Below, piece after piece: positions 9,329-32,000 of a DNA stretch of 32,000 nt. The translations under genes were made by a program, and so were the position numbers. Source of the stretch: Candidatus Hadarchaeales archaeon (lineage in GTDB: Archaea > Hadarchaeota > Hadarchaeia > Hadarchaeales > Hadarchaeaceae); the NCBI GenBank assembly GCA_038823825.1, contig JAWBCC010000001.1:270001-302000 (forward strand), read 5' to 3'. Every line of letters starts with the position of its first letter. Positions within the stretch are counted from its first letter, which is position 1. The notes beneath the pieces were generated by a model. That model did not search any database, was not told the DNA's origin, and was given only the letters and a program-made list of their open reading frames with translations.

Positions 9329-11226
9329 TGATAATAGATTATGGCGCAATCGGTCTGAAAGTGGGGCTCGAAATTCATCAAGAACTCGCAACTAAAAAAC
9401 TGTTTTGTGCGTGTCCTACCCTGCTTTCAGACAAAACGCCGGAAGGCACGGTAATAAGAAGACTCCGACCGACACAGAGCGAGTTAGGCGAGTTCGACAG
9501 GGCGGCGCTTGCTGAAGCCATCAAGGGGAAAGGCTTCAAATATCAAATGGATTCGGACACAACTTGTTTAGTGGAACTGGACGAGGAGCCGCCACATTCA
9601 GTTCGTGATGACGTTATAGATGCAGCTCTCGAAATAAGTCTATTACTCAACGCGAAGCCCGTAGATGAAGTTCATGTGATGAGAAAAGTGGTAATAGACG
9701 GAAGCAACACCTCTGGATTTCAGCGCACAATGTTAATTGCGATGGATGGATGGATAGAAGTAGAAGGAAAAAGATACAAAATCACGACCGTTTGCTTGGA
9801 AGAGGATGCCGCGAGAAAGGTGGGAGAAACAGAGGAATATATAGAATATCGTCTTGACAGGTTAGGAATCCCGCTAGTGGAGATAGCGACCGCGGCAGAA
9901 TTTTCAGATCCAGAGACACCGGCGAAGGTTGCTTTTTATATCGGTCAGCTCTGCAGGATGACTAGCAAGGTAAAATGGGGGTTAGGAGCAACTAGGCAAG
10001 ATATAAATATATCGATTTCTGGTGGAGCGAGACAGGAGATAAAAGGCATTCAAGAACTTTCACTGATTCCGAAGGTGATCGAATTTGAAGCCGCTAGGCA
10101 ACTTGGTCTGCTGAAGCTTAAAGATGAGCTGAACAGGCGTGGAGTCAAGGAGAACCCCTGTGAGATTCGCAAAGTCACACACATCTTCGAAAATACGGCT
10201 TGTAGAATGATAAAGAAAGCTATTGAAAGCGGTGCAGACGTTTTTGCCGTAAAGCTAGCTGGGTTTGCCGGTCTATTGGGAATGGAACTTTGTCCGGGAA
10301 GAAGATTTGGAATGGAGCTTGCAGATCGGGCGAGAGTTTTCGGCAAAGTTGGAGGAATCTTCCATACCGATGAACTTCCTAATTATGGAATCTCGGATGA
10401 GGAAGTTTCAAAGTTAAAGAATGAGATGGGTGCCTCCGAAAATGATGTTGTAGTTTTAACGGTGGCTAAACCCAAAGATGCGGAGAATGCGTTAAGAGCA
10501 GTAGTCGAAAGGGCCAATATGGCGATCGTTGGAGTTCCGGAAGAAACGAGAAGAGCTCTTTCTGATGGAACCACCGAGTTTATGCGTCCACTGCCTGGAG
10601 CAGCCAGAATGTATCCGGAAACCGATATACCACCGATTCCCATAGACAAGAGAAGGATTGCCAAAATAAAGAAAAAACTTCCTGAACGTCCTGAACAAAA
10701 GATCGAAAGGTTTATGAAGTCATACAAATTGAGTCGTGAACTTGCGGAGCAGATGGTTTTTTATGGAGATTTCCGACTTTTTGAAGATCTTTTAAAAAGA
10801 ACCAAGGCGGATCCAACCCTTGTAGCGACTCTTTTGACGCAAACTCTGACAAGTCTGAGGAGGGAAGGTGTTCAAGTCGAGAGAATAAGAGTGGAGGACA
10901 TCGCTGAAATTTTGATTCTTGTTAGAAAGAAAAAAATTGCGAAAGAAGGAATCTCAGAAATTCTTAGGGAAATTTCTTCCGGGATTTCGGTAAAAGAAGC
11001 GATTGATAAGCTTAATTTGTGGTCGATAAGTGAGCGGGATTTGTGCGAGTTTGTCCGAAAAGTAGTGTGTGAGAAAAAATCTTTCATTTTGGAAAGAAGA
11101 GAGGCTGCTCTCCAGCCTCTGATGGGAATCCTAATGCAAAGTTTGCGTGGACGTGTTGATGGGGAAACGGTTCATAAATTGCTTGAGAAGGAAATTAGAA
11201 AGGTTCTTAGGGAGGAAGCCAAGTGA
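9328..11226 (+). CDS. gatE: Glutamyl-tRNA(Gln) amidotransferase subunit E
   Basis: The track starts at TTG 9313. ATG 9328 overlaps the gatD TGA (TGATG) and is preceded by GGAGGGAAGG. It has GLKVGLEIHQEL, a GatB/E catalytic core, an AspRS-like insertion and a YqeY-like tail. GatDE is archaea-specific. Confidence 0.95.
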   Translation: MIIDYGAIGLKVGLEIHQELATKKLFCACPTLLSDKTPEGTVIRRLRPTQSELGEFDRAALAEAIKGKGFKYQMDSDTTCLVELDEEPPHSVRDDVIDAALEISLLLNAKPVDEVHVMRKVVIDGSNTSGFQRTMLIAMDGWIEVEGKRYKITTVCLEEDAARKVGETEEYIEYRLDRLGIPLVEIATAAEFSDPETPAKVAFYIGQLCRMTSKVKWGLGATRQDINISISGGARQEIKGIQELSLIPKVIEFEAARQLGLLKLKDELNRRGVKENPCEIRKVTHIFENTACRMIKKAIESGADVFAVKLAGFAGLLGMELCPGRRFGMELADRARVFGKVGGIFHTDELPNYGISDEEVSKLKNEMGASENDVVVLTVAKPKDAENALRAVVERANMAIVGVPEETRRALSDGTTEFMRPLPGAARMYPETDIPPIPIDKRRIAKIKKKLPERPEQKIERFMKSYKLSRELAEQMVFYGDFRLFEDLLKRTKADPTLVATLLTQTLTSLRREGVQVERIRVEDIAEILILVRKKKIAKEGISEILREISSGISVKEAIDKLNLWSISERDLCEFVRKVVCEKKSFILERREAALQPLMGILMQSLRGRVDGETVHKLLEKEIRKVLREEAK

Positions 11227-13987: not shown

Positions 13988-14032
13988 CTCGGAAACTTTT
14001 TAACCGTTTTTTGACAATATTTTGTGGAAGGC
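13988..14032 (+). promoter_or_regulatory. Putative promoter of the giant surface-protein gene
   Basis: AAACTTTTTAACC (about 13993-14005) is a TATA-like element about 28-35 nt upstream of ATG 14033. GGAAGG lies directly upstream of the ATG. Confidence 0.3.
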
Positions 14033-17000
14033 ATGAGGAAATTTCCGCTACTGGCGCTGGTGGTATTTGTTTTCTGCCACATCATAGCATTTGCTACATC
14101 GGGAGAAACCTTCATTGAGCGTGATTTTTCATCTCCGGAAATTTATCTCCAGGGAACTGAAGTTGTTGATGGAAAAGTCAGGCTCAGAATAGGACCGGAA
14201 CAGATTTCTGACAAGCTGAGCCTGCGCCTGGAGAAAATTGGCGGGGACAACTGGGTCTCTCTTGAAAATATCGAAAGCTGGGCGGATTACGATGGAAAGG
14301 CGATGGTGGGCGTTAAGGACGAGTATGGAAGAAGCTACATTTATGTTCTCTGGCGGAAAGGAAGCTATTCGGACGCATTTAGAAGGTACAACGTGTCAGC
14401 AAACAGATGGGAGGTTCTGTCGAGTCCAACCGAAAGCGGGCTAGATGTAGTGAAGAATGGCGTTTGTATGGCTTGGGACGGCGGACGTTATATATATGTC
14501 ATGCGTGGTGGCGCATATTCCGATTTCTACAGGGATTTCTGGAGGTATGACATAAAGACGAACACCTGGGAAATCTTGGAGAATACTCCATGGTATCAGG
14601 GTGCAGGAAATGCGATGGCATGGGTGCGACTTGATGGAAAGGAGTACATATATGCGATAATAGGAACTACTAGCTCATCTGCTGCGGCGGGCAGGCGAGG
14701 AATGGTTTTTGCCAGATTTAACATCGCTGCATGGGAGATGGACCCGGACAACGAACCTTCGAAGTGGGAGGTCATCCAGTGGGTTGGTGGATATAGCCGG
14801 TATGGGGTAAGTGGAACCATTCCATACGGATGTGATGACGGTTCGAGCATGGTTTGGACGGGAGATAATTATCTATACTACTTGGTCGGAGCATATAATG
14901 AAACATTGAGCGGACTAGAGGAGAGCCATTTTCTGCGATATCATCTCAAAGAGAACCGATGGGAGGAACTAGCGCCTATACCTTACAACGGAAGACCGGA
15001 GGACAGATCGGGTGTCGATGATGGAGGCACTATCGTCTGGGCAGGAGATTACATTTACGCCGTGAAGGGAGGAGATGGAGCAGGACATGATTACGCGGAC
15101 AATTTCTATCGCTACTGTATCAGCACGAACAGTTGGGAAAAGTTGGCAAATCTTCCAGAGGGTGTTGGAAGAAGAAACGGCAGTCGGTTAGCGGCGATAG
15201 ATGGTGTCGTTTATTTCCTGCGTGGCCACGGTTCAACAGGCTTTTGGAAGTACAATCCTCCGCTATTTTCTACAGCTGAGTCATTTTATTCGCGAGTTAT
15301 CGATGTCGGCGCGGAGACGGATTGGGGAAAGATATCCTGGTCTTACTCCAAGCCAGATGGGATAGTAGAAAGCGTGTTTCAAACTTCAGATGAGCCAAGC
15401 GCATTACCAGATGGTTCTAATAGGGTTGGTCAGATTCCGATTTGGTATCCCGCAGATCATCCAGTTATAAGCGAGTTTGCAACGAGAGGGCCCGACAACG
15501 CATATCAAGAGTTTATCGAGATATACAATCCCACATCCTCAGATGTTGATCTCACAGGATGGAAGATTCAGTACCGGTCAGTGACCGGCACGAGTTGGTA
15601 CGACAGGGTTGTATTTCCAAGCGGAGCGAAGATCCCTGCGTACGGTTTCTATCTTGCTGTAAATGGACAGGGGTATCCAGGAGGAGTGATCGAAGGTGTG
15701 CAGGGAGATGCTCAGATGACGGATACAATTGCGGACAGCGGACATTTGAGACTCGTAGATAATTTTGGCAATGTGTTGGATGCTGTCAGTTATGGAAGCG
15801 GTCATAATTATACTGAAGAAGGACCACCGGCCCCAAACCATGGAACTACAAAAAATAACAAGAGTGTAGAGCGGAGAGCCACACCATTTTCCACAATTGC
15901 TGACATGTTGGTCGGAGGCATGCATGAGAATTTAGGAAATGCTTGCGACACAAACAACAATTCTTTTGATTTCTTTGTAAGACCGGTGAGAAATCCTCAA
16001 AATTCTTTGAGCGCGCCCGAAATTCCACCAACTCCCATGCCACTTGCCAACTATTCGCAAACGTTCGTTTTAGATGGATTATTTGAAAACATTTCAGAGA
16101 AAATTGTAGGACAACAGTCACAAGTTTTCCTAGAGAATCAGCAAACCACAATAGTTTTGAAAGGCGATAATGTAAGTTCTCCGGATTTGATGAATGATGA
16201 AGATGGAATATATTTTGAGGTATTTTCTGTTCAGTCGTACATAACAGAGGAAAACTGGGAAAATATGGCGGCCTGGCCTGGACTTTTGACAAATGGAGCC
16301 GCTTGCTACGCTGAAAACATATTGTCGGGCAGAAAGTATGTTTATGCCCACGATACTAGACATCTCTACCGTTACGACATTGCGGCGGACTTGTGGGAGA
16401 ATATCGGACCCTTGCCGGCTCAGGCATTCGCCGGTAGCGGAATGGTGTGGACTAAAGATAATTACATTTACATGACCAAAGGAGGATACAGTCTTCCCAA
16501 TTTTTGGAGATATCACATCCCAGAAAACAAATGGGAAAACCTACCAAATGTTCCGATTGATCAGAGGACTGGAAGTTGCATCGCATGGGATGGAGGAGAT
16601 AAAATATATGGAATCTTCCAAGCTGTAACCGATAACGCACTCTATGTCTTCTCGATAAGTGATAATTCATGGACAAGATTGTACACGATAGTTTATGGTG
16701 GGACCCCGAGGAGTCCGGGAAGCGGTTCATCGCTCGTTGCGGTGGGCGGATATCTCTACTACGCAGTCGGCGGAATGAGCCAATACTGGAGATATAACAT
16801 TGCTGATAACACTTGGGATAGACTTGCGGGCGCTCCTGGAACATGGGGGGCTGGAGGAGCACAAGAAGTGATAAATGAGAATATCATTTATGCGGTTGGA
16901 TTCGGTAGTCCGAGAGTTGGATTCGGCAGATTCATAATACCAGAAAATCGATGGGTGAAAATGACGGACTTACCAGCGGCGATCAGCAATGCAAACGACA

Positions 17001-20000
17001 GACTTGTTTTCGATGGATCATTCACGTATCTGGTGAGGGCTTACGGAGACAACAGCTTCTGGAGATATCCCAAGCTTTCCTATCAATACGATATATCTAC
17101 TGAGTCTTCTCTCCGATTGAACTTACCACCTGGTTACCAAGTTGAAAACTTGTTAATTTATCTGAAATTTTCTTCGGAAAATGGGGCGACGTACTATCTT
17201 GGAATTTACAACTGGATAACGGGAACGTATAGTGAGAACTCCCTTAGGCATATCGGCGACAACACGGTTGAAAATGTTCTGGTTGTGAGAGTTACCGGGA
17301 GTGAATATGTCTCAAGCGATAACTTGATAAAAATCAGAATAAGATCTTCAGAGCCGATTGCTCATAAATTGCTAGCAGATAGGCTCGTAGCAGAGATTCA
17401 AGTCGCGAGGAATCAGTATGCGTTAAGGTGGGGTTATGTTTTCTCAGGTTTGGATAATTCATACGAAAATGCGGAAATAATGATCCTTGGCTTCTCCGAC
17501 AACGATGAAAACATAGAGATAAGTGTTTGGAAAAATTCAACTTCTAACTGGGTAAAGCTTGGTGTCCTGCCCGCTTCGCCGAACTTCATGTCTTTCAAAC
17601 TTTCTGACTTGCCAGATTACTTGATTGGGGGAGAAAATCTCTTCGTGAAATTCGAAGATTCAGACAGTATGGATTGGACACAGACGACTATTTACATCGA
17701 TTACTTAGCAGTTAGAGCTGTGAAATCTTACGGAACATCAATAGTTGTGGAAGTTCGTTTTGGATCAGACAACGATCCAACCGATGAGCCATTTCCTCCG
17801 GAAAATTGGACTGACTGGATTATTTTCAACGTTGGTGACAATCTTGCCTTTAGATCCAGATATCTCCAGTATCGCATTCAACTCTTCTCAACCGATTTCA
17901 GATTTTCACCGCTAGTTGAAGTGCTAGAGATAGAACATCTTCCGCTCATCTATCGGGAGGGCATTTTCGTAAGCCAACCACTCCTATTGGGCTACGTGGA
18001 CAGTTGGGGGGAGTTAAAGTTTGATGTGGACACACCGACAGATACATCGATAGAGTTCTTCACCAGGTCCTCACCAGATGGCTTTTTGTGGTCTGAGTGG
18101 GAGCCGCTCGATTCAAGAAACATTCGGAGCCCAGTCTACAACTGCAGATATCTGCAGGTCAAAGCTATTTTATATGGGTTTGGCTCATTGACCCCCGTTT
18201 TGAAGGAGTACTCGATAGAGTACGTTCCAGATAAAACACCACCAATCGTTACCGTTTCTGAACCTAGAGACGGATTTGTGACAACACAAGATAAGATAAT
18301 AGTGCGGGGCACGGTAAGCGACGCAAATCCGGTTAGGCTTGAAATAAACGGCATGCCGGTTATCTTCGAACCGGGAGCGTTTGAGAAAGAGGTCAGATTG
18401 AGTCCGGGACAGAATGTGATAAGGATAGTTGCCTCTGATGTTGCCGGTAACAAGAGGGAGATTCTCATCCGTGGAACAATGGAGATGGGTCAGCCAATTC
18501 GACCGGCGGTACCTCCCTCAACATACTTTGTCGCCGCAATGATTGTGGGAGGGGTTATCGCAGGTATTTCGCTAATATACATTTTTGCTCCAGCTTTTGT
18601 GAAGGTAGTAAGGAAGGGGAATTTGGTTTTTTTGAGTCTCGCCTTAGTCTTTCCAATTTTGTTTAGTGGCTCCGCTGCTGCTCTTTCCACTTGGGAAGGA
18701 TCCTGGGTAAGTGATTATAACGATTTTAGGTTTGGAGAATTTGAAAATGTGGCTTCGTTTACTTCAGGTGTTTTAGCCTTACAACCGGAAGAATATTGGG
18801 GAAATGATTTTGCTGCTTCATACTATTATACCGAATGGACGAACTTGGATTCGTTTGAGAAGAAGGTCTCAATAAGGTTTGTTGCACAGGCTTCAAAGAC
18901 CCTTACCGGATTTATGATTTATCTTTATCAGACCGGAACGGATCTCACTTGGAGATTTAGGCTAGAGTTGGACGATGGCACCGGAAAGCCCAGTGGGATT
19001 CTCGCTTGGTCAAATGCTTGGCAGACTCTGAAGGTCACAAGTAGCAAATGGTGGACCGTAGATCTCCTTTCGCCAGGCATGTTGCGAAAGGGTGAGACAT
19101 ATCATATAGTGATTTCTTGGGAAAACTTCGGTGTAGCGCCTTCTTCACAAGATTTCATAAATATTAGGAGCCTTTGGCCGTTTAATCAAACGTGGATAAA
19201 CGGTCTCGTAACGAACAATAACAGAGGAGTTTTGATCTTTGACGGTTCATCTTGGAAGGATCTAGGCCGAGAACCAGTTTATATCCTGAACTTTTCAGAT
19301 AAAACTTACGAGGGGAATCCTTATTACACGCTTAGGACGGATGCTTATGAAATCGGCGTTTTCGGGGACAACGCCAAAGGAGAGAGATTTCAAACGGATT
19401 TATTGAGAAGGGTTTGTGGTATCGAGGTTTACGCTAGAAAGAGCGGCACACCCCACGACAACCTTTATCTGGTTCTGCAGAGAGGAGCATCGACATTAGC
19501 AAGCGTCTCAGTTGGAGACTCGACCACTATTGAAAATAGGTGGGGATGGGTTGGAGCACTCTTCGATGCACCTTTGAGTCTATCTCCGGCACAGTACGTG
19601 GTGGGCTTGAAATCTCCAGGTTCAACGAGCGGAAACAGGTATGATGTTTGTCTACTTGGAACATATTCGTCCTCTCCACATCCTGATCTTACCTTTTCAG
19701 GGACCACAGCCTGTTTTGTCTACTCTACGAACGGTGGGATTACATGGTCGACCAAATCCAAGATGCAGGATGATATACCGTTTAGATTCATAGAATCATT
19801 CAAAAAATCGGGCATTTTCACTTCAAGAATTTTTGACGCTGGAGATATTATGAAGTGGGAGCGATTAAACTGGGATGGAAGAATCTTGGATGGGACTAGT
19901 TTGGTTTTCCAGACTAGAACCTCTACAGATAACGTTAGGTGGTCGCCTTGGGAGGATGTTGGTCCCGATAGTTCAATAACTTCCCCGCCAGGTAGATATA

Positions 20001-20455
20001 TCCAGTATAGAGTAATGTTTACAACGCAAAGCGAGTATGTTACACCAAGATTGAATAGGGTTTTGATATATTTTTCAGATGCCTCTCCGCCGAAGATTGT
20101 TTCTGCCACACCAAGGAGCGGTCAAACAGTTTTCTCTACTACACCTACTATCGAAATTGTACTTGATGACATCTCCGGAATTGATCAAGATTCAATAGTT
20201 CTGAAGGTCGATGGTCAGAAAGTGGATTTCTCTTATGATCCGGCAACGAAAACAGTCTGGTTTTTGCCGGACAAGGGGCTGTCAACGGGCGAACATGAAA
20301 TATTCATTTCTTTGCAGGACGGAGCTGGTAATCTGCTGGAGGAAAGATGGACGTTTTTGGTCAGCGTTGAAGAAGGTCTTCGAGTGGAGTGGATACTCGC
20401 AGCTTTAGTCGTTGCAATCTTAATTATCGTGTTTGTAATCAAGACCAAAAGGTAA
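14033..20455 (+). CDS. Giant (~2140 aa) secreted/membrane-anchored multidomain protein: signal peptide, six Kelch-like blades, lamin-tail domain, six more Kelch-like blades, beta-sandwich modules, Ig-like domain, TM hairpin, a second ectodomain with an Asp-box and an Ig-like domain, and a C-terminal TM anchor
   Basis: - Uninterrupted ORF. The track starts at GTG 14024; ATG 14033 gives MRKFPLLALVVFVFCHIIAFATS.
- Two sets of six repeats follow the pattern YIY.(x)GG....FWRY.(x)..N.WE.L (aa ~95-412 and ~755-1015).
- The LTD signature is VISEF...EFIEIYNPTSSDVDLTGWKIQY...HLRLVDNFGNVLDAVSYG (aa ~478-595).
- Hydrophobic segments lie at aa 1499-1526, 1533-1556 and 2122-2140.
- STNGGITWS is an Asp-box-like motif.
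- aa numbering follows the track ORF. Confidence 0.85.
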   Translation: MRKFPLLALVVFVFCHIIAFATSGETFIERDFSSPEIYLQGTEVVDGKVRLRIGPEQISDKLSLRLEKIGGDNWVSLENIESWADYDGKAMVGVKDEYGRSYIYVLWRKGSYSDAFRRYNVSANRWEVLSSPTESGLDVVKNGVCMAWDGGRYIYVMRGGAYSDFYRDFWRYDIKTNTWEILENTPWYQGAGNAMAWVRLDGKEYIYAIIGTTSSSAAAGRRGMVFARFNIAAWEMDPDNEPSKWEVIQWVGGYSRYGVSGTIPYGCDDGSSMVWTGDNYLYYLVGAYNETLSGLEESHFLRYHLKENRWEELAPIPYNGRPEDRSGVDDGGTIVWAGDYIYAVKGGDGAGHDYADNFYRYCISTNSWEKLANLPEGVGRRNGSRLAAIDGVVYFLRGHGSTGFWKYNPPLFSTAESFYSRVIDVGAETDWGKISWSYSKPDGIVESVFQTSDEPSALPDGSNRVGQIPIWYPADHPVISEFATRGPDNAYQEFIEIYNPTSSDVDLTGWKIQYRSVTGTSWYDRVVFPSGAKIPAYGFYLAVNGQGYPGGVIEGVQGDAQMTDTIADSGHLRLVDNFGNVLDAVSYGSGHNYTEEGPPAPNHGTTKNNKSVERRATPFSTIADMLVGGMHENLGNACDTNNNSFDFFVRPVRNPQNSLSAPEIPPTPMPLANYSQTFVLDGLFENISEKIVGQQSQVFLENQQTTIVLKGDNVSSPDLMNDEDGIYFEVFSVQSYITEENWENMAAWPGLLTNGAACYAENILSGRKYVYAHDTRHLYRYDIAADLWENIGPLPAQAFAGSGMVWTKDNYIYMTKGGYSLPNFWRYHIPENKWENLPNVPIDQRTGSCIAWDGGDKIYGIFQAVTDNALYVFSISDNSWTRLYTIVYGGTPRSPGSGSSLVAVGGYLYYAVGGMSQYWRYNIADNTWDRLAGAPGTWGAGGAQEVINENIIYAVGFGSPRVGFGRFIIPENRWVKMTDLPAAISNANDRLVFDGSFTYLVRAYGDNSFWRYPKLSYQYDISTESSLRLNLPPGYQVENLLIYLKFSSENGATYYLGIYNWITGTYSENSLRHIGDNTVENVLVVRVTGSEYVSSDNLIKIRIRSSEPIAHKLLADRLVAEIQVARNQYALRWGYVFSGLDNSYENAEIMILGFSDNDENIEISVWKNSTSNWVKLGVLPASPNFMSFKLSDLPDYLIGGENLFVKFEDSDSMDWTQTTIYIDYLAVRAVKSYGTSIVVEVRFGSDNDPTDEPFPPENWTDWIIFNVGDNLAFRSRYLQYRIQLFSTDFRFSPLVEVLEIEHLPLIYREGIFVSQPLLLGYVDSWGELKFDVDTPTDTSIEFFTRSSPDGFLWSEWEPLDSRNIRSPVYNCRYLQVKAILYGFGSLTPVLKEYSIEYVPDKTPPIVTVSEPRDGFVTTQDKIIVRGTVSDANPVRLEINGMPVIFEPGAFEKEVRLSPGQNVIRIVASDVAGNKREILIRGTMEMGQPIRPAVPPSTYFVAAMIVGGVIAGISLIYIFAPAFVKVVRKGNLVFLSLALVFPILFSGSAAALSTWEGSWVSDYNDFRFGEFENVASFTSGVLALQPEEYWGNDFAASYYYTEWTNLDSFEKKVSIRFVAQASKTLTGFMIYLYQTGTDLTWRFRLELDDGTGKPSGILAWSNAWQTLKVTSSKWWTVDLLSPGMLRKGETYHIVISWENFGVAPSSQDFINIRSLWPFNQTWINGLVTNNNRGVLIFDGSSWKDLGREPVYILNFSDKTYEGNPYYTLRTDAYEIGVFGDNAKGERFQTDLLRRVCGIEVYARKSGTPHDNLYLVLQRGASTLASVSVGDSTTIENRWGWVGALFDAPLSLSPAQYVVGLKSPGSTSGNRYDVCLLGTYSSSPHPDLTFSGTTACFVYSTNGGITWSTKSKMQDDIPFRFIESFKKSGIFTSRIFDAGDIMKWERLNWDGRILDGTSLVFQTRTSTDNVRWSPWEDVGPDSSITSPPGRYIQYRVMFTTQSEYVTPRLNRVLIYFSDASPPKIVSATPRSGQTVFSTTPTIEIVLDDISGIDQDSIVLKVDGQKVDFSYDPATKTVWFLPDKGLSTGEHEIFISLQDGAGNLLEERWTFLVSVEEGLRVEWILAALVVAILIIVFVIKTKR

Positions 20456-20457
20456 AA

Positions 20458-21732
20458 TCACATCCAGATCAAGTGGAGAAGCAGGTGACCGACGAGCACG
20501 GATGCGATCGTCGTTGGAACGCTTATCTTAAGATACTCTCTCAATTTTATCCTGTGTCCATGCTTTTCAAGAATTCCGACCGCAAAGACGTTTGCCGTGG
20601 CACCGACCGGGCTTATGTTTCCGCCAACGCCGGTTCCAATCAACATTCCAAAGAGGAACGGAAATGGGGAAACGCCTGTTACTTCTGCCAAGTGTTTACA
20701 GACCGGTATCATCAAGACCGTGTAGGGCACATTGTCCATGAACGAGGATATTGCGACAGACATCCAAGTGATCATCGCTAGCAAAAGTGTGGGACTTCCC
20801 GCGCTCACTCTGCTTATTCCGCCCGCGAAATCTTTGAGGAGTCCTATCTTGTCAACACCATTTATCACCAGGAATACACCAACAACAAAGAAAAATGAAT
20901 TCCAATCGAATTCCTTCATCATGGTGACAGATTTTTTGTGTGCAACGGCCAAGGAAATCAAACCAACAGCAAGTCCAGCAACTCCGGATGGTATTCCTAT
21001 TTTCTGACCGATTATGAGAAGAACGACTCCGAATGCTAGAATGAACGCGGGTAGGGGATTTATCTGGATTTCTTCTTCTTCAAGATGAGTTTTTTTCCTG
21101 AGTCTTTTTCCGATAACAAAATAGAGAGCGAGTAAGCCAGCAAGCACCCCGGCGACTGAGATAACCCCGATGCTGATCTTTCCTTGGAAGAGATAAAAAT
21201 CCCAAAACTTCATTCCAGTTTCTGCAGCGAGGATGATGGAAGGAGGATCTGCGACCATTGTTACCGTGGTTGACATGTTTGAAGATATTGCAACCGGCAC
21301 TAAGTAATAAAAAAGAGGTGTTCCAGTCTTTCTCGCAATTTCTATGAGGATTGGTGCCATGAGGAGAACAACTCCAACATTTTCGAGAAAGGCGGAAAGG
21401 AAAGCGGTTATTGCGCATAGAATTATGAGGGCAGACCCCTCACTGTCGGTTTTTCTGAGGAGATGGAAGGCGAGATATTTTGGGATCCCGCTGTCTGCAA
21501 AAATCATGGACAGCATCATGAAACCCCAATAAATCCCCAATACGTCCCATTTGATCGCGTCTACGATTTCTTTTGGTGAAGCGAGGTTTGAAAAGAGCAA
21601 GATGAGAGATATCGCTATGCCGGATGTTATCCCAATGTAAGCAATTTTCCATTTTCTTGTGATGGCGAACGCGTAACACAGAATGAAAATGATGAATGCC
21701 GAAATCTTGGCTATTTCCATTGGCTCACCCAA
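20458..21732 (-). CDS. Ion-transporter-superfamily permease (ArsB/NhaD / CitMHS-like)
   Basis: 424-aa polytopic membrane ORF. The track start is TTG 21732. ATG 21720, preceded by GGTGAG, is the more likely start (MEIAKISAFIIF...). It has two homologous halves with LENVGVVLLMAPI and FMDNVPYTVLMIP hairpin-like motifs typical of the family. Substrate not inferable. Confidence 0.75.
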   Translation of the reverse strand: MGEPMEIAKISAFIIFILCYAFAITRKWKIAYIGITSGIAISLILLFSNLASPKEIVDAIKWDVLGIYWGFMMLSMIFADSGIPKYLAFHLLRKTDSEGSALIILCAITAFLSAFLENVGVVLLMAPILIEIARKTGTPLFYYLVPVAISSNMSTTVTMVADPPSIILAAETGMKFWDFYLFQGKISIGVISVAGVLAGLLALYFVIGKRLRKKTHLEEEEIQINPLPAFILAFGVVLLIIGQKIGIPSGVAGLAVGLISLAVAHKKSVTMMKEFDWNSFFFVVGVFLVINGVDKIGLLKDFAGGISRVSAGSPTLLLAMITWMSVAISSFMDNVPYTVLMIPVCKHLAEVTGVSPFPFLFGMLIGTGVGGNISPVGATANVFAVGILEKHGHRIKLREYLKISVPTTIASVLVGHLLLHLIWM

Positions 21733-21763: not shown

Positions 21764-22714
21764 TTAAATCGCTCCCAGTCCTATCACGTAAAGAAGGAAA
21801 AGACAAATCACGACTAGGGGTATTAAGTTCTGCATTTTTGATTCGAATTTTTCCGCGTCTTCTACTTTTCCAGACTCAACTAGTCTCATAGCTTGCACGG
21901 AGACCAGGAGATTGTAAAGGAAGAGAGAATATATTACCAGCATTATTCTGTCAAAAAGAGTGAGATAGCCAAGCGCTGGAAGACCACTCAGCGCGGCCAG
22001 ATGATATGCTACGGCCGACATAAGTGTTGTTACGCAGATACTCACTCTCTGACCAAAGTTTTTGACGGAAATTGAAAACGAAAGCAGGGAAATCAGGGTA
22101 ATGATGATTATTGGAAATATCGTTTTGAAAAGGGCGGAAATCTTAGAGCGAAAAACTGTGACACCGAAGGCGAACGTTGAGAAGTTTTCATCCGGATAAA
22201 CGTGCTCGCTTACTCGGCACCTAAAATCCTTTACTTCCCATCCGGGCACTTGTAGGTTTGGATCAAGTCCGCTTTCTTCCAAATCAGGTTCGAAAACCAA
22301 TTGTGAAATACCTTTTTGTTTGTCTTCGATTTCTACTTGCAAAAGATGCTCATCGAATGGAAAGTTTCTGAAATTTAGGGAGCCGATATATGTCCCTTTT
22401 ACTCTGTATTCGATGTAATTTTCATTTTCTCTTTCTTCTTTCGTCACTAGCTCTATCCTTGAAGGAGCGCCACGCAAGAACTCTATATTCGGTTCTACGT
22501 CTTTGTATTTGAACCATATGTAGAAATCTATCGTAAAAGTTTGGGATGGGACGTCCACTTTTTCTATCGCATTGATCCACACTCCGACTTTCACAACGGA
22601 CGGATTCGTTTGTGATGTGTCCTTATTGTCCGCTACTTGTCCATATACATTCATACTGTTGAGCACTACTAAGGATGTGGCCAGAATTATTGCAAGAGCG
22701 AGGTGTCTTTTCAT
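21764..22714 (-). CDS. Pentameric ligand-gated ion channel homologue (prokaryotic Cys-loop-less pLGIC, GLIC/ELIC-like)
   Basis: - 316-317 aa (GTG 22717 or ATG 22714), with a signal peptide.
- The beta-rich ectodomain carries VKVGVWINAIEKVDVPSQTFTIDFYIWFKYKD (beta1-beta2) and the hallmark loop LNFRNFPFDEHLLQVEIE (FPFD at 22352-22363).
- VPGWEV precedes three closely spaced TM helices. The M2 region is GQRVSICVTTLMSAVAYHLAALSGLP.
- A short M3-M4 loop and a fourth TM helix follow.
- It aligns block by block with my recollection of GLIC. Confidence 0.8.
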   Translation of the reverse strand: MKRHLALAIILATSLVVLNSMNVYGQVADNKDTSQTNPSVVKVGVWINAIEKVDVPSQTFTIDFYIWFKYKDVEPNIEFLRGAPSRIELVTKEERENENYIEYRVKGTYIGSLNFRNFPFDEHLLQVEIEDKQKGISQLVFEPDLEESGLDPNLQVPGWEVKDFRCRVSEHVYPDENFSTFAFGVTVFRSKISALFKTIFPIIIITLISLLSFSISVKNFGQRVSICVTTLMSAVAYHLAALSGLPALGYLTLFDRIMLVIYSLFLYNLLVSVQAMRLVESGKVEDAEKFESKMQNLIPLVVICLFLLYVIGLGAI

Positions 22715-22807
22715 CACAGAATATAGACATAGTGGATTTTTATTGTTTGCTTTTTGTCATACAGTTAGCAACAGATTCTGGCATAAGAATGAATTCTCGT
22801 GTGGTAT

Positions 22808-22900
22808 TGGCGGGCCCGGTGGGATTTGAACCCACGACTACCCGGTTTCCCCCGTGGTGGTCCGAAGCCGGGCATCCTGTCCTGGCTGGATCACGGGCCC
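22808..22900 (-). tRNA. Intron-containing tRNA, most likely tRNA-Arg(UCG), with genomically encoded CCA
   Basis: - Minus-strand sequence: GGGCCCG-TG-ATCC-AGCCAGGACA-GGAT-G-CCCGG-CTTCGG[ACCACCACGGGGGAA]A-CCGGG-TAGTC-GTGGG-TTCAAAT-CCCAC-CGGGCCC-G-CCA.
- It folds into a perfect 7-bp acceptor stem, 4-bp D stem, 5-bp anticodon stem and 5-bp T stem, with a GTTCAAATC T-loop.
- A 15-nt insertion sits at the canonical 37/38 intron position.
- The anticodon assignment depends on the exact intron boundaries. Confidence 0.8.
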
Positions 22901-31077: not shown

Positions 31078-31155
31078 TTTTTTTGTCCTCCTTCTACTTC
31101 GCTACTTCATTCTTTAGTCAATCGTCAATATAAACTGTGGATATTTAAAAAAGTA
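31078..31155 (-). promoter_or_regulatory. Putative promoter and leader of the L3 ribosomal-protein operon
   Basis: The minus strand reads CTTTTTTAAATATCCACAGTTTATATTGACG...GAAGGAGGACAAAAAAAATG. There are two TATA-like elements, TTTAAATA at 31142-31149 and TTTATATT at about 31126-31133. A strong GGAGGA Shine-Dalgarno sequence precedes the ATG at 31077. The distal TATA overlaps the stop codon of the upstream permease gene. Confidence 0.45.
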
Positions 31156-32000
31156 GAATCTCGGCAGAAATTACGGCCGATGTGGTAAATATGGCAAGAA
31201 GGCTGATGATGAACCCGTATTTGGTAAATTCTGAAAACGAGATCGGATATCCAGACTGGGTGAGTATTTCAGACCACATTATTCCAGCCAGCGAACCCGT
31301 GATCATGGTGCAAGGGCCAATGTCGCTGCCGGCTATTATGGCCAAAGCTACTCCCTTATTTTGAACGTTCAAACTTCTTGAGAAGAAAACAGCCATCGGA
31401 TGATTATTCATAAATCCAGACAACCAACTGGCTGCGAAGCACACTGCTACAATGGATATACTACTCATCCTAAAAATAGAAAAAATGGAGGAGAATCTTG
31501 CTGTCCAACCAGTGTATGCAAGGCCCTCCACAAGTACAAACAGTCCAATAAGATAGGGGGCAATTTTCCAAGGTACTCTAACTGCGATTTTTCTGAGGAG
31601 TTTCCTATAGCTAATGAAAAAGGCGAGCAAAATGGCGAAAATCAAAGAGATGCTCCAAGCCGGAAGTTTTGTTATGCTTTTCGGTAATCCAATTAGAGTT
31701 ATTGTCAGAAAAAGGCAAAGCAGACCGGCCCACATGGCTTTTCTATCTCTTATTATCTCGAGATTTTCTTCCATTTGAACTTCCAGACTCTCTGGTATCT
31801 GTTTTCTGAAGATTATCCAGAGGGCAATCGTACACACCAAAGTTGAAAGAAAGGAAGGAAGCAGCATAAATTTGGCAAATTCTACGAAATCTATACCAAC
31901 AAAATCTGCAACGATGATGTTTGTTGGGTTTCCGATATAAAGTGCCATTCCAGCGATGTTTGTACTAAAAAATTGAAGAAAGAGGAATGGTATTGGATTT
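31145..32000 (-). CDS. ArsB/NhaD-family permease (arsenical-pump-like), 5' end beyond window
   Basis: The track shows a 267-aa ORF from ATG 31948, but the frame stays open to the window edge (...NPIPFLFLQFFSTNIAGMALYIGNPTNIIVADFVGIDF...). GNPTNIIVADF matches the ArsB SNLVNIVSADFF region. The protein is polytopic and hydrophobic throughout. Confidence 0.75.
   Translation of the reverse strand, partial: NPIPFLFLQFFSTNIAGMALYIGNPTNIIVADFVGIDFVEFAKFMLLPSFLSTLVCTIALWIIFRKQIPESLEVQMEENLEIIRDRKAMWAGLLCLFLTITLIGLPKSITKLPAWSISLIFAILLAFFISYRKLLRKIAVRVPWKIAPYLIGLFVLVEGLAYTGWTARFSSIFSIFRMSSISIVAVCFAASWLSGFMNNHPMAVFFSRSLNVQNKGVALAIIAGSDIGPCTMITGSLAGIMWSEILTQSGYPISFSEFTKYGFIISLLAIFTTSAVISAEILLF

Follow-up and report, generated by a model that had tools for sequence, protein, structure and literature searches.

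The window analyzed here is a stretch of 32,000 nt from a Candidatus Hadarchaeales archaeon (GenBank assembly GCA_038823825.1, contig JAWBCC010000001.1, positions 270,001 to 302,000 of the forward strand), and its nearest named relatives are metagenome-assembled genomes (MAGs) of Candidatus Hadarchaeota/Hadarchaeales. It carries a giant open reading frame (ORF) for a surface protein, in the interior of which a membrane anchor is followed immediately by a segment that resembles a signal peptide. By comparing this ORF with its relatives, we concluded that it is almost certainly a real, inherited in-frame fusion of two adjacent genes that were formerly translationally coupled, and that each ancestral gene probably encoded a Sec-exported surface protein with a C-terminal anchor. 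Taking the steps together, we cautiously lean towards a reading in which the fusion is fixed, the junction is re-inserted into the membrane as a hairpin, and the protein is cleaved at the former signal peptide.

The ORF is open from GTG 14024 (2143 codons plus the stop), which serves as the base of the amino acid numbering used here, although ATG 14033 (MRKFPLL...), three codons downstream, is the likely start codon and would give a 2,140-codon gene. The ORF was also intact in an independent contig (L007). A Kyte-Doolittle scan of the 2143 aa found only four hydrophobic segments, that is, the N-terminal signal peptide and residues 1499-1530, 1531-1557, and 2116-2143; thus, the internal pair of anchor and signal is a real and singular feature of the protein. 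Residues 1499-1532 read STYFVAAMIVGGVIAGISLIYIFAPAFV-KVVRKG and are directly followed by NLVFLSLALVFPILFSGSAAA-LSTWEG, and the junction in its context is ...PPSTYFVAAMIVGGVIAGISLIYIFAPAFV KVVRKG NLVFLSLALVFPILFSGSAAA LSTWEG... The first member of the pair, a transmembrane segment that we call TM1, has the form of an archaeal C-terminal anchor, with approximately 20-28 hydrophobic residues followed by K/R (aa 1499-1526 plus KVVRKG); however, the first in-frame stop after TM1 occurs only at 20453, so that this anchor is not truly C-terminal. The second member has the charged n-region, the short hydrophobic h-region, and the small-residue c-region of a signal peptide, and is located internally, at aa 1527-1553 of a continuous ORF. 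A first-pass annotation, which was made from the letters of the window alone, had reported this junction together with its coordinates, an in-frame TTG, a T7 tract, and stop codons in the +1 frame, and all of these statements hold. The further TM anchor and KTKR tail that it placed at the end of the downstream part were likewise observed at the end of the ORF (...WILAALVVAILIIVFVIKTKR-stop).

The fused state was observed in two lineages. In lineage A, to which the window belongs, the metagenome contigs L006 and L007 were 99.6% identical to the window without any indel in the ORF, and their junctions were identical, including the T7 tract. Among the proteins of Hadarchaeales MAGs at NCBI, P0161-P0163 showed the same junction as the window and P0164 (contig L011) showed a variant of it; the full-length relatives, which NCBI labels as 'FG-GAP-like repeat-containing protein', include P0162 and P0163, and both share aa 735-2143 with the window protein at 97.7% identity. 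Lineage B (L002, L004, and P0155; 65-69% amino acid identity) is likewise fused in frame, and its junction (...ILLGFPRIRILPWIFLLSLLLFFPLVSVAAPD...) is homologous to that of the window; in detail it reads ...SAYAIAAITIGVLVAGVSLVSILLGF PRIRI LPWIFLLSLLLFFPLVSVAAPDLPPAQTIW..., at nearly the same length. A gene for a CitMHS-type transporter lies downstream in lineage B, as in the window. One of the lineage B contigs, L002, carries an in-frame TAA at its positions 723-725, where Tyr is encoded in the window (…VKSYGTS…), and this stop splits the giant ORF; because P0155 (98.8% identical) reads through the position and L004 has no in-frame stop there, the TAA is either a nonsense mutation confined to this contig or an error in its sequence.

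The alternative that an assembly or sequencing indel has joined two real genes deserved attention, as homopolymers are error-prone and there are relatives that carry two genes one frame apart. However, the in-frame junction was repeated in at least seven lineage A assemblies or proteins and in three lineage B assemblies, which came from different projects, and the anchor tail plus signal peptide of the split genes exceeds the fused junction by 8-10 residues, which is not a single-base difference. Since the fused state was found in two sister lineages and in at least ten assemblies, we concluded that it is not an assembly artefact, and the probability that we assign to such an artefact is negligible.

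The split state was found in other relatives. A search with the C-terminal part retrieved a handful of relatives only, among which P0002, P0003, and P0004 are stand-alone proteins of 607-627 aa with 51-53% identity; P0002 and P0004 start with a classic signal peptide (MMRRPTIMLLLVLIISVAAASPAIA/Q..., where the slash here and below marks the cleavage site). In four related contigs of approximately 52% identity, L001 (= GCA_964481545.1), L008, and L009/L010, the two halves are separate, adjacent genes. The upstream gene, which in L001 encodes 1432 aa with Kelch, CBM_4_9, and Glucodextran_B domains, terminates in ...VAVVAAVAAAGVAALAAWVFLRPPVHHSSGSFGRRHR-stop, a TM plus a basic R...RRHR-stop tail, and its stop codon shares bases with the start codon of the downstream gene (ATGA in L001 and L008; TGATG in L009/L010). 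The downstream gene encodes approximately 610-625 aa with an MMRR-hydrophobic-AAA/Q N-terminus. In L001, a 100-N scaffold gap at 9858-9956, with the same approximately 55-nt sequence flanking both sides, hides the ATGA overlap, and P0003 was called too late, at MAVASPAAAQ...; the same ATGA arrangement is present without a gap in L008.

The split pair (L001, L008, and L009/L010) and the window protein have the identical two protein families in the identical order: the upstream protein has an Ig-like domain ahead of its TM and basic tail, and in the downstream protein W-x-G-x-W and YWGNDFAASY come after the signal peptide; over the C-terminal part, the identity to the window protein is 51-55%. 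TM1 aligned with the C-terminal anchors of the upstream split genes of L001, L008, and L009, in which the anchor is truly C-terminal and the stop follows at once, and aa 1527-1557 matched the N-terminal signal peptides of the stand-alone homologues column for column. In addition, an exhaustive phmmer search retrieved distant stand-alone homologues (P0008, P0013, and P0017; 31-37% identity), whose residues 7-12 pair, at the beginning of the alignments, with query positions 200-204; in the window protein these positions are aa 1530-1534, where the ex-signal peptide starts. Among 153 related proteins, the internal pair of anchor and signal was found only in the window's own cluster and in P0001 from the sister lineage. 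A word-indexed search with the junction fragment 18164-18940 gave no match, although P0001 is approximately 60% identical over this fragment, and the failure is probably a limitation of the tool. The split pair differs from the fusion in that its ORFs are separate and in different frames, with an overlapping stop/start and a cytoplasmic tail of approximately 17 residues, whereas the window has lost the tail, stop, and start and reads through in one frame. Further differences concern the middle domains of the upstream protein (CBM_4_9 in the split pair versus a second Kelch propeller and a lamin-tail domain (LTD) in the window) and the genomic neighborhood. The suggestion of the first-pass annotation that two complete genes had been joined in frame was thus borne out by related genomes, with two ORFs, adjacent and overlapping at stop and start, in L001, L008, and L009/L010, and one ORF in lineages A and B.

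In a neighbor-joining tree, the two fused lineages were sisters and the split lineage was their sister group, with stand-alone genes as outgroups. A single derived fusion is the parsimonious reading of this tree, and the fused state is probably the derived one, because the more distant homologues are separate genes. Since the fused junction is shorter than its split counterpart by the 8-10 residues mentioned above and the split genes lie one frame apart, we inferred a frame-changing deletion instead of a point indel. Such a deletion, of approximately 10 codons, would have removed the upstream cytoplasmic tail, the stop, and the downstream start, and would have joined TM1 to the downstream signal peptide through a basic loop of 5-7 residues. 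A different rearrangement was observed in a Hadarchaeum sp. MAG (L003, 133-5478), in which a 1781-aa protein with a single anchor contains a homologue of the C-terminal-half module of the window (…KVSLRFVAQ…YEGNPYY…) inserted in the middle of a protein of the N-terminal-half type; therefore, modules have been shuffled among paralogues.

The DNA of the junction holds elements that could indicate that the locus still behaves as two genes, with translation or transcription of an independent C-terminal half starting inside the ORF, at TTG 18623 or GTG 18599, and the first-pass annotation had proposed internal initiation at the former. A Shine-Dalgarno (SD)-like AGGAAGGGG is present at 18611-18619, and the in-frame TTG (18623-18625) lies 3 nt past it; genes within operons of this organism do rely on GGAGGTGA-type SD sites; and GTG 18599, also in frame, would give MKVVRKG..., an ideal signal-peptide n-region. 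An AT-rich TAATATAC at 18573-18580, judged by eye, adds to this picture. However, scored against a generic anti-SD, the SD-like motif reached -6.8 kcal/mol versus a median of -9.45 for the real gene starts of the window, and scores as good or better occurred at 14% of the in-frame ORF positions and at 11 of the 108 in-frame ATG/GTG/TTG codons. GTG 18599 has no SD (score -0.2), and the product of TTG 18623 would lack the charged n-region. In the 99.6%-identical strain represented by L011, the motif is AAGAAGGGG, with AGG replaced by AAG, so that AGGA is broken while the residue (R1530K) remains basic. In lineage B (L002 and L004), the junction is without an SD-like site, without an in-frame ATG/GTG/TTG, and without the AT-rich box. 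Neither an SD comparable to those of real starts, nor a conserved start codon, nor conservation in relatives was found, and the SD-like motif is best read as R-K-G codons of the predicted loop; independent initiation of the C-terminal half is very improbable.

Two further interpretations of the same stretch were rejected. An internal archaeal promoter at TAATATAC, likewise judged by eye, was discarded; these letters are L-I-Y codons and are absent from lineage B. The +1 frame contains TGA, TAG, and TAA across 18600-18611, and these stops, together with the 'GTGA' at 18599-18602, were considered as a relic of an overlapping stop/start; this was rejected because four such clusters occur in the ORF and the junction of lineage B has no off-frame stops. 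Thus, the additional junction elements listed in the first-pass annotation are present as described, but the SD-like site and the off-frame stops are at chance level, and lineage B has neither the SD-like site nor the TTG nor the T7 tract.

The T7 tract (18627-18633) had also been proposed as a point of slippage, or as the trace of an assembly indel. As a slippage or phase-variation switch, it would couple or uncouple the two halves: it is the sole homopolymer of at least 7 nt in this ORF and lies at the junction, and a T6 variant would stop at once (…KVVRKGNLVF-stop), leaving a plausible anchored N-terminal protein. However, read at the DNA level, T7 was unchanged in the window and three further contigs (L006, L007, and L011), even though five single-nucleotide polymorphisms (SNPs) of L011 fall in the 67 nt around it; in lineage B the tract is missing. 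It merely encodes V-F-L within a hydrophobic segment, and the window contains 14 A/T runs of 7 nt or more. A T6 tract leads to a stop after 4 codons and a T8 tract to one after approximately 15; both only truncate the protein and open no alternative frame, and no start codon for the C-terminal half follows. Neither a conserved tract nor an extended or alternative shifted product was found among the fused loci, and we consider a slippage switch very improbable, even more so than an internal start.

We then proposed how the fused protein would be threaded through the membrane. The N-terminal signal peptide would export ectodomain 1, and TM1, formerly a C-terminal stop-transfer anchor, would stop the transfer and leave the basic loop in the cytoplasm. 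The ex-signal peptide would re-enter the translocon in an N-in/C-out orientation and export ectodomain 2, and the final TM would anchor the C-terminus. An archaeal type I signal peptidase would then cut after A-x-A (A1551-A1553/L1554) and create the new N-terminus LSTWEGSWVSDYNDFR (LSTWEGSW...), which would yield two separately anchored proteins in a strict 1:1 ratio, the N-terminal one of which would keep the ex-signal peptide as its second hairpin helix. The likely topology is a TM hairpin that leaves the two ectodomains on the outside: the K/R residues at each hydrophobic segment, as read from the sequence, fall on the predicted cytoplasmic side, and the KVVRKGN loop has three K/R versus none over the next 15 residues. 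The topology suggested in the first-pass annotation, with the ectodomains out and the KVVRKG loop in, fits the positive-inside rule. The junction appears to be built like that of an internal-signal polyprotein, in which an upstream N-out/C-in TM leads through a short, positively charged loop to an internal signal sequence whose cleavage motif faces the trans side. A sorting signal of a different type was not apparent: an NCBIfam scan for archaeosortase-type signals in both halves and the junction fragment gave no match at E up to 1, and no PGF or PEF motif was visible in either anchor. The protein is thus not a predicted archaeosortase substrate.

Whether the last step, cleavage after aa 1551-1553, takes place is the part of the proposal on which readings diverge. 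The rival is a single protein of approximately 2140 aa that stays uncleaved, with a TM1-loop-TM2 hairpin plus the C-terminal anchor, hence three TM helices and linked ectodomains outside. This topology is identical to that of the cleaved protein, the uncharged stretch of 18-26 residues around the second hydrophobic segment can span the membrane, the sequence holds nothing that forces cleavage, and the halves, once fused, have no obvious need to separate. By contrast, the hydrophobic core is short, with 14 residues in the window (LVFLSLALVFPILF) and approximately 17 in lineage B, and is therefore within the range of about 7-17 for h-regions; in both fused lineages a Pro lies within it and a c-region of polar and small residues comes next (SGSAAA, SVAA, or ASAA), which is the pattern of a signal peptide and not of a TM helix. 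Cleavage is favored because of this short h-region and the helix-breaking Pro near the h-/c-region boundary. Internal signal sequences with short h-regions reportedly expose their sites to signal peptidase, as Nilsson, Whitley and von Heijne are said to have found in 1994. Cleavage is also favored because the -3/-1 sites persist in every fused variant, namely AAA/LS in the window, AVA/LS in L011, SVA/AP in L002, and ASA/AG in L004, all with small uncharged residues at -3/-1 and no Pro from -3 to +1. The charge of the n-region is similarly retained (three K/R in KVVRKG of the window, two in PRIRI of lineage B, and KVVKKG in L011).

The strain variant L011 is informative in this respect. Five of its 18 SNPs over 4.8 kb fall inside the 67-nt junction (18612-18678) and change three amino acids (R1530K, N1533S, and A1552V, the last turning AAA into AVA at the -2 position). 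None of these changes affects the charge or the alanines at -3/-1, and within AAA only position -2 is altered; this pattern also favors cleavage. The evolution of the junction thus seems fast but constrained, as is typical of signal peptides. Several points weigh on the other side of our interpretation. The crude -3/-1 rule also found 'sites' inside control TM helices and has low specificity; the length of the uncharged stretch around the second hydrophobic segment, as noted, is enough for an uncleaved TM helix; and there are two fused lineages only, so that independent observations of the conservation of the cleavage motif are few. With regard to the fusion itself, the split locus of L001 is not syntenic with the window, as the CitMHS transporter gene that lies downstream in the window, L002, and L011 is absent in L001; therefore, the split genes may be paralogues instead of strict orthologues. 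On balance, we incline to signal-peptidase cleavage after the A-x-A motif, and regard the uncleaved protein as the less likely outcome.

Table 1. Predicted layout of the fused surface-protein gene in the window (amino acid numbers count from GTG 14024)
Feature	Position	Strand	Basis or remark
Fused giant surface-protein gene	14033..20455	+	Probable start ATG 14033; ORF open from GTG 14024
N-terminal signal peptide MRKFPLLALVVFVFCHIIAFA/T, aa 4-24	14033..14095	+	Hydropathy peak aa 7-25; AFA/TS fits the -3/-1 rule
Ectodomain 1	14096..18517	+	Pfam matches
TM1, aa 1499-1526	18518..18601	+	Hydropathy; aligned with C-terminal anchors of stand-alone upstream genes (L001, L008, L009)
Basic loop KVVRKGN, aa 1527-1533, predicted cytoplasmic	18602..18622	+	Holds SD-like AGGAAGGGG
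Ex-signal peptide, now internal, aa 1534-1553	18623..18682	+	h-region LVFLSLALVFPILF, c-region SGSAAA
Predicted signal-peptidase site after A1553	between 18682 and 18683	+	-3/-1 rule
Ectodomain 2	18683..20383	+	Pfam; homologues are stand-alone proteins of approximately 610 aa
C-terminal TM anchor (aa 2121-2139), KTKR tail, and stop codon	20384..20455	+	Hydropathy

According to Pfam, ectodomain 1 contains two Kelch beta-propellers, an LTD, beta-sandwich modules, and a membrane-proximal Glucodextran_B-type Ig domain directly ahead of TM1 (table 1). Ectodomain 2 has weak DUF4082-like similarity (E 3.2e-4, under the Pfam cut-off), a beta-sandwich, and a Big_5 Ig-like domain immediately ahead of the final TM. 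The module next to the membrane in one half is a paralogue of its counterpart in the other (32% identity over 182 aa, E 1e-14). An AlphaFold2 model of the C-terminal half, from a 5-sequence alignment, had a mean pLDDT of 52.9 and a pTM of 0.32 and was too poor for a fold search, and a PDB sequence search with this half as the query gave no match at E up to 1. The distal part of ectodomain 1 varied at the strain level. In P0162 (2285 aa) and P0163 (2281 aa), the N-terminal approximately 875 aa form an unrelated FG-GAP-like module in place of Kelch plus LTD, with only approximately 33% local similarity to aa 1-734 of the window (14024-16225); this looks like a swap of the distal ectodomain cassette. 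Ten of the 30 differences between the ORFs of the window and L007 cluster within 37 nt (16399-16435; aa 792-804) in the second Kelch propeller, and six of these ten change the amino acid, altering five residues. The clustering suggests a small recombination or hypervariable patch, approximately 170 nt downstream of the cassette breakpoint.

The fused gene lies in a core chromosomal region that encodes Kae1 plus a RIO-type kinase, a CCA-adding enzyme, GatD/GatE, archease, RtcB, and a long ribosomal-protein operon. Several other features of the window were recorded. A tRNA gene at 22811-22900 (minus strand; Rfam 51.8 bits, E 2.7e-10), which was missed by ARAGORN, carries an insertion of approximately 18 nt at the anticodon loop that is likely an intron, and the sole indel between the window and L006/L007 (C5 versus C6 at approximately 22848-22853) is located inside this insertion. 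A 317-aa ORF at 21764-22717 (minus strand) matched Neur_chan_memb (E 8e-5) and Neur_chan_LBD (E 2e-4), both below the Pfam cut-offs, and may encode an archaeal homologue of pentameric ligand-gated ion channels (pLGIC). CitMHS/ArsB-type transporter ORFs are present at 20458-21732 and 31145-31948, both on the minus strand; the latter (267 aa) matched only the C-terminal part of the profiles and may be a truncated paralogue or have a start that was called late.

The locus reveals no new mechanism; gene fusions are familiar, and so are internal signal peptides. Its value lies in the natural 'before and after' pair that it offers for the fusion of two exported, anchored proteins, as the pre-fusion, ATGA-coupled pair survives in sister lineages for direct comparison. 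It indicates that a hairpin can form from an anchor joined to a signal peptide while both ectodomains are kept, and its junction lets one ask whether an archaeal signal peptidase acts on internal signal sequences. Annotation pipelines will call such proteins multi-pass, whereas the products may be two surface proteins. Literature searches on prokaryotic internal signal peptides and polyproteins and on the Hadarchaeota S-layer returned nothing relevant. We consider it an even call whether Hadarchaeales have a 'glycoprotein-style polyprotein', that is, an ORF product that would be threaded twice, cut by the housekeeping signal peptidase, and retained as two anchored subunits in a 1:1 ratio with the hairpin kept.

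Related arrangements are known from other systems. S-layer precursors that are split after export, such as SlpA of Clostridioides difficile and tetrabrachion of Staphylothermus marinus, give two cell-surface chains in a 1:1 ratio from one precursor, as the window protein would; however, they are cut by dedicated proteases at sites that are not signal sequences, and they have no internal pair of anchor and signal. FbcH of B. japonicum is reportedly a case of 'one gene, two proteins', in which one ORF encodes two membrane proteins that are separate elsewhere and for which cleavage is said to have been demonstrated experimentally; there, the signal peptide of the downstream partner is likewise internal and is said to direct re-insertion and cleavage. 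FbcH belongs to a bacterial respiratory complex and has a polytopic upstream partner, whereas the window protein combines two large, single-anchor archaeal surface proteins, and its cleavage is only predicted. Viral envelope-glycoprotein polyproteins that are processed by the signal peptidase of the endoplasmic reticulum (ER), such as flavivirus prM-E-NS1, bunyavirus Gn-Gc, and alphavirus E2-6K-E1, have the same order of parts: the stop-transfer anchor is followed by a basic cytoplasmic loop of very few residues, an internal signal, and an A-x-A-type site on the outer face, and the internal signal remains as the second hairpin helix of the upstream protein. They differ in being viral, in using the eukaryotic ER peptidase, and in showing no sequence homology to the fusion described here, which is encoded by the cell's own chromosome, in a core housekeeping region near GatDE, RtcB, and the ribosomal protein operon. 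If our reading is true, the Hadarchaeales protein would be an archaeal counterpart of both flavivirus/bunyavirus envelope processing and bacterial FbcH.

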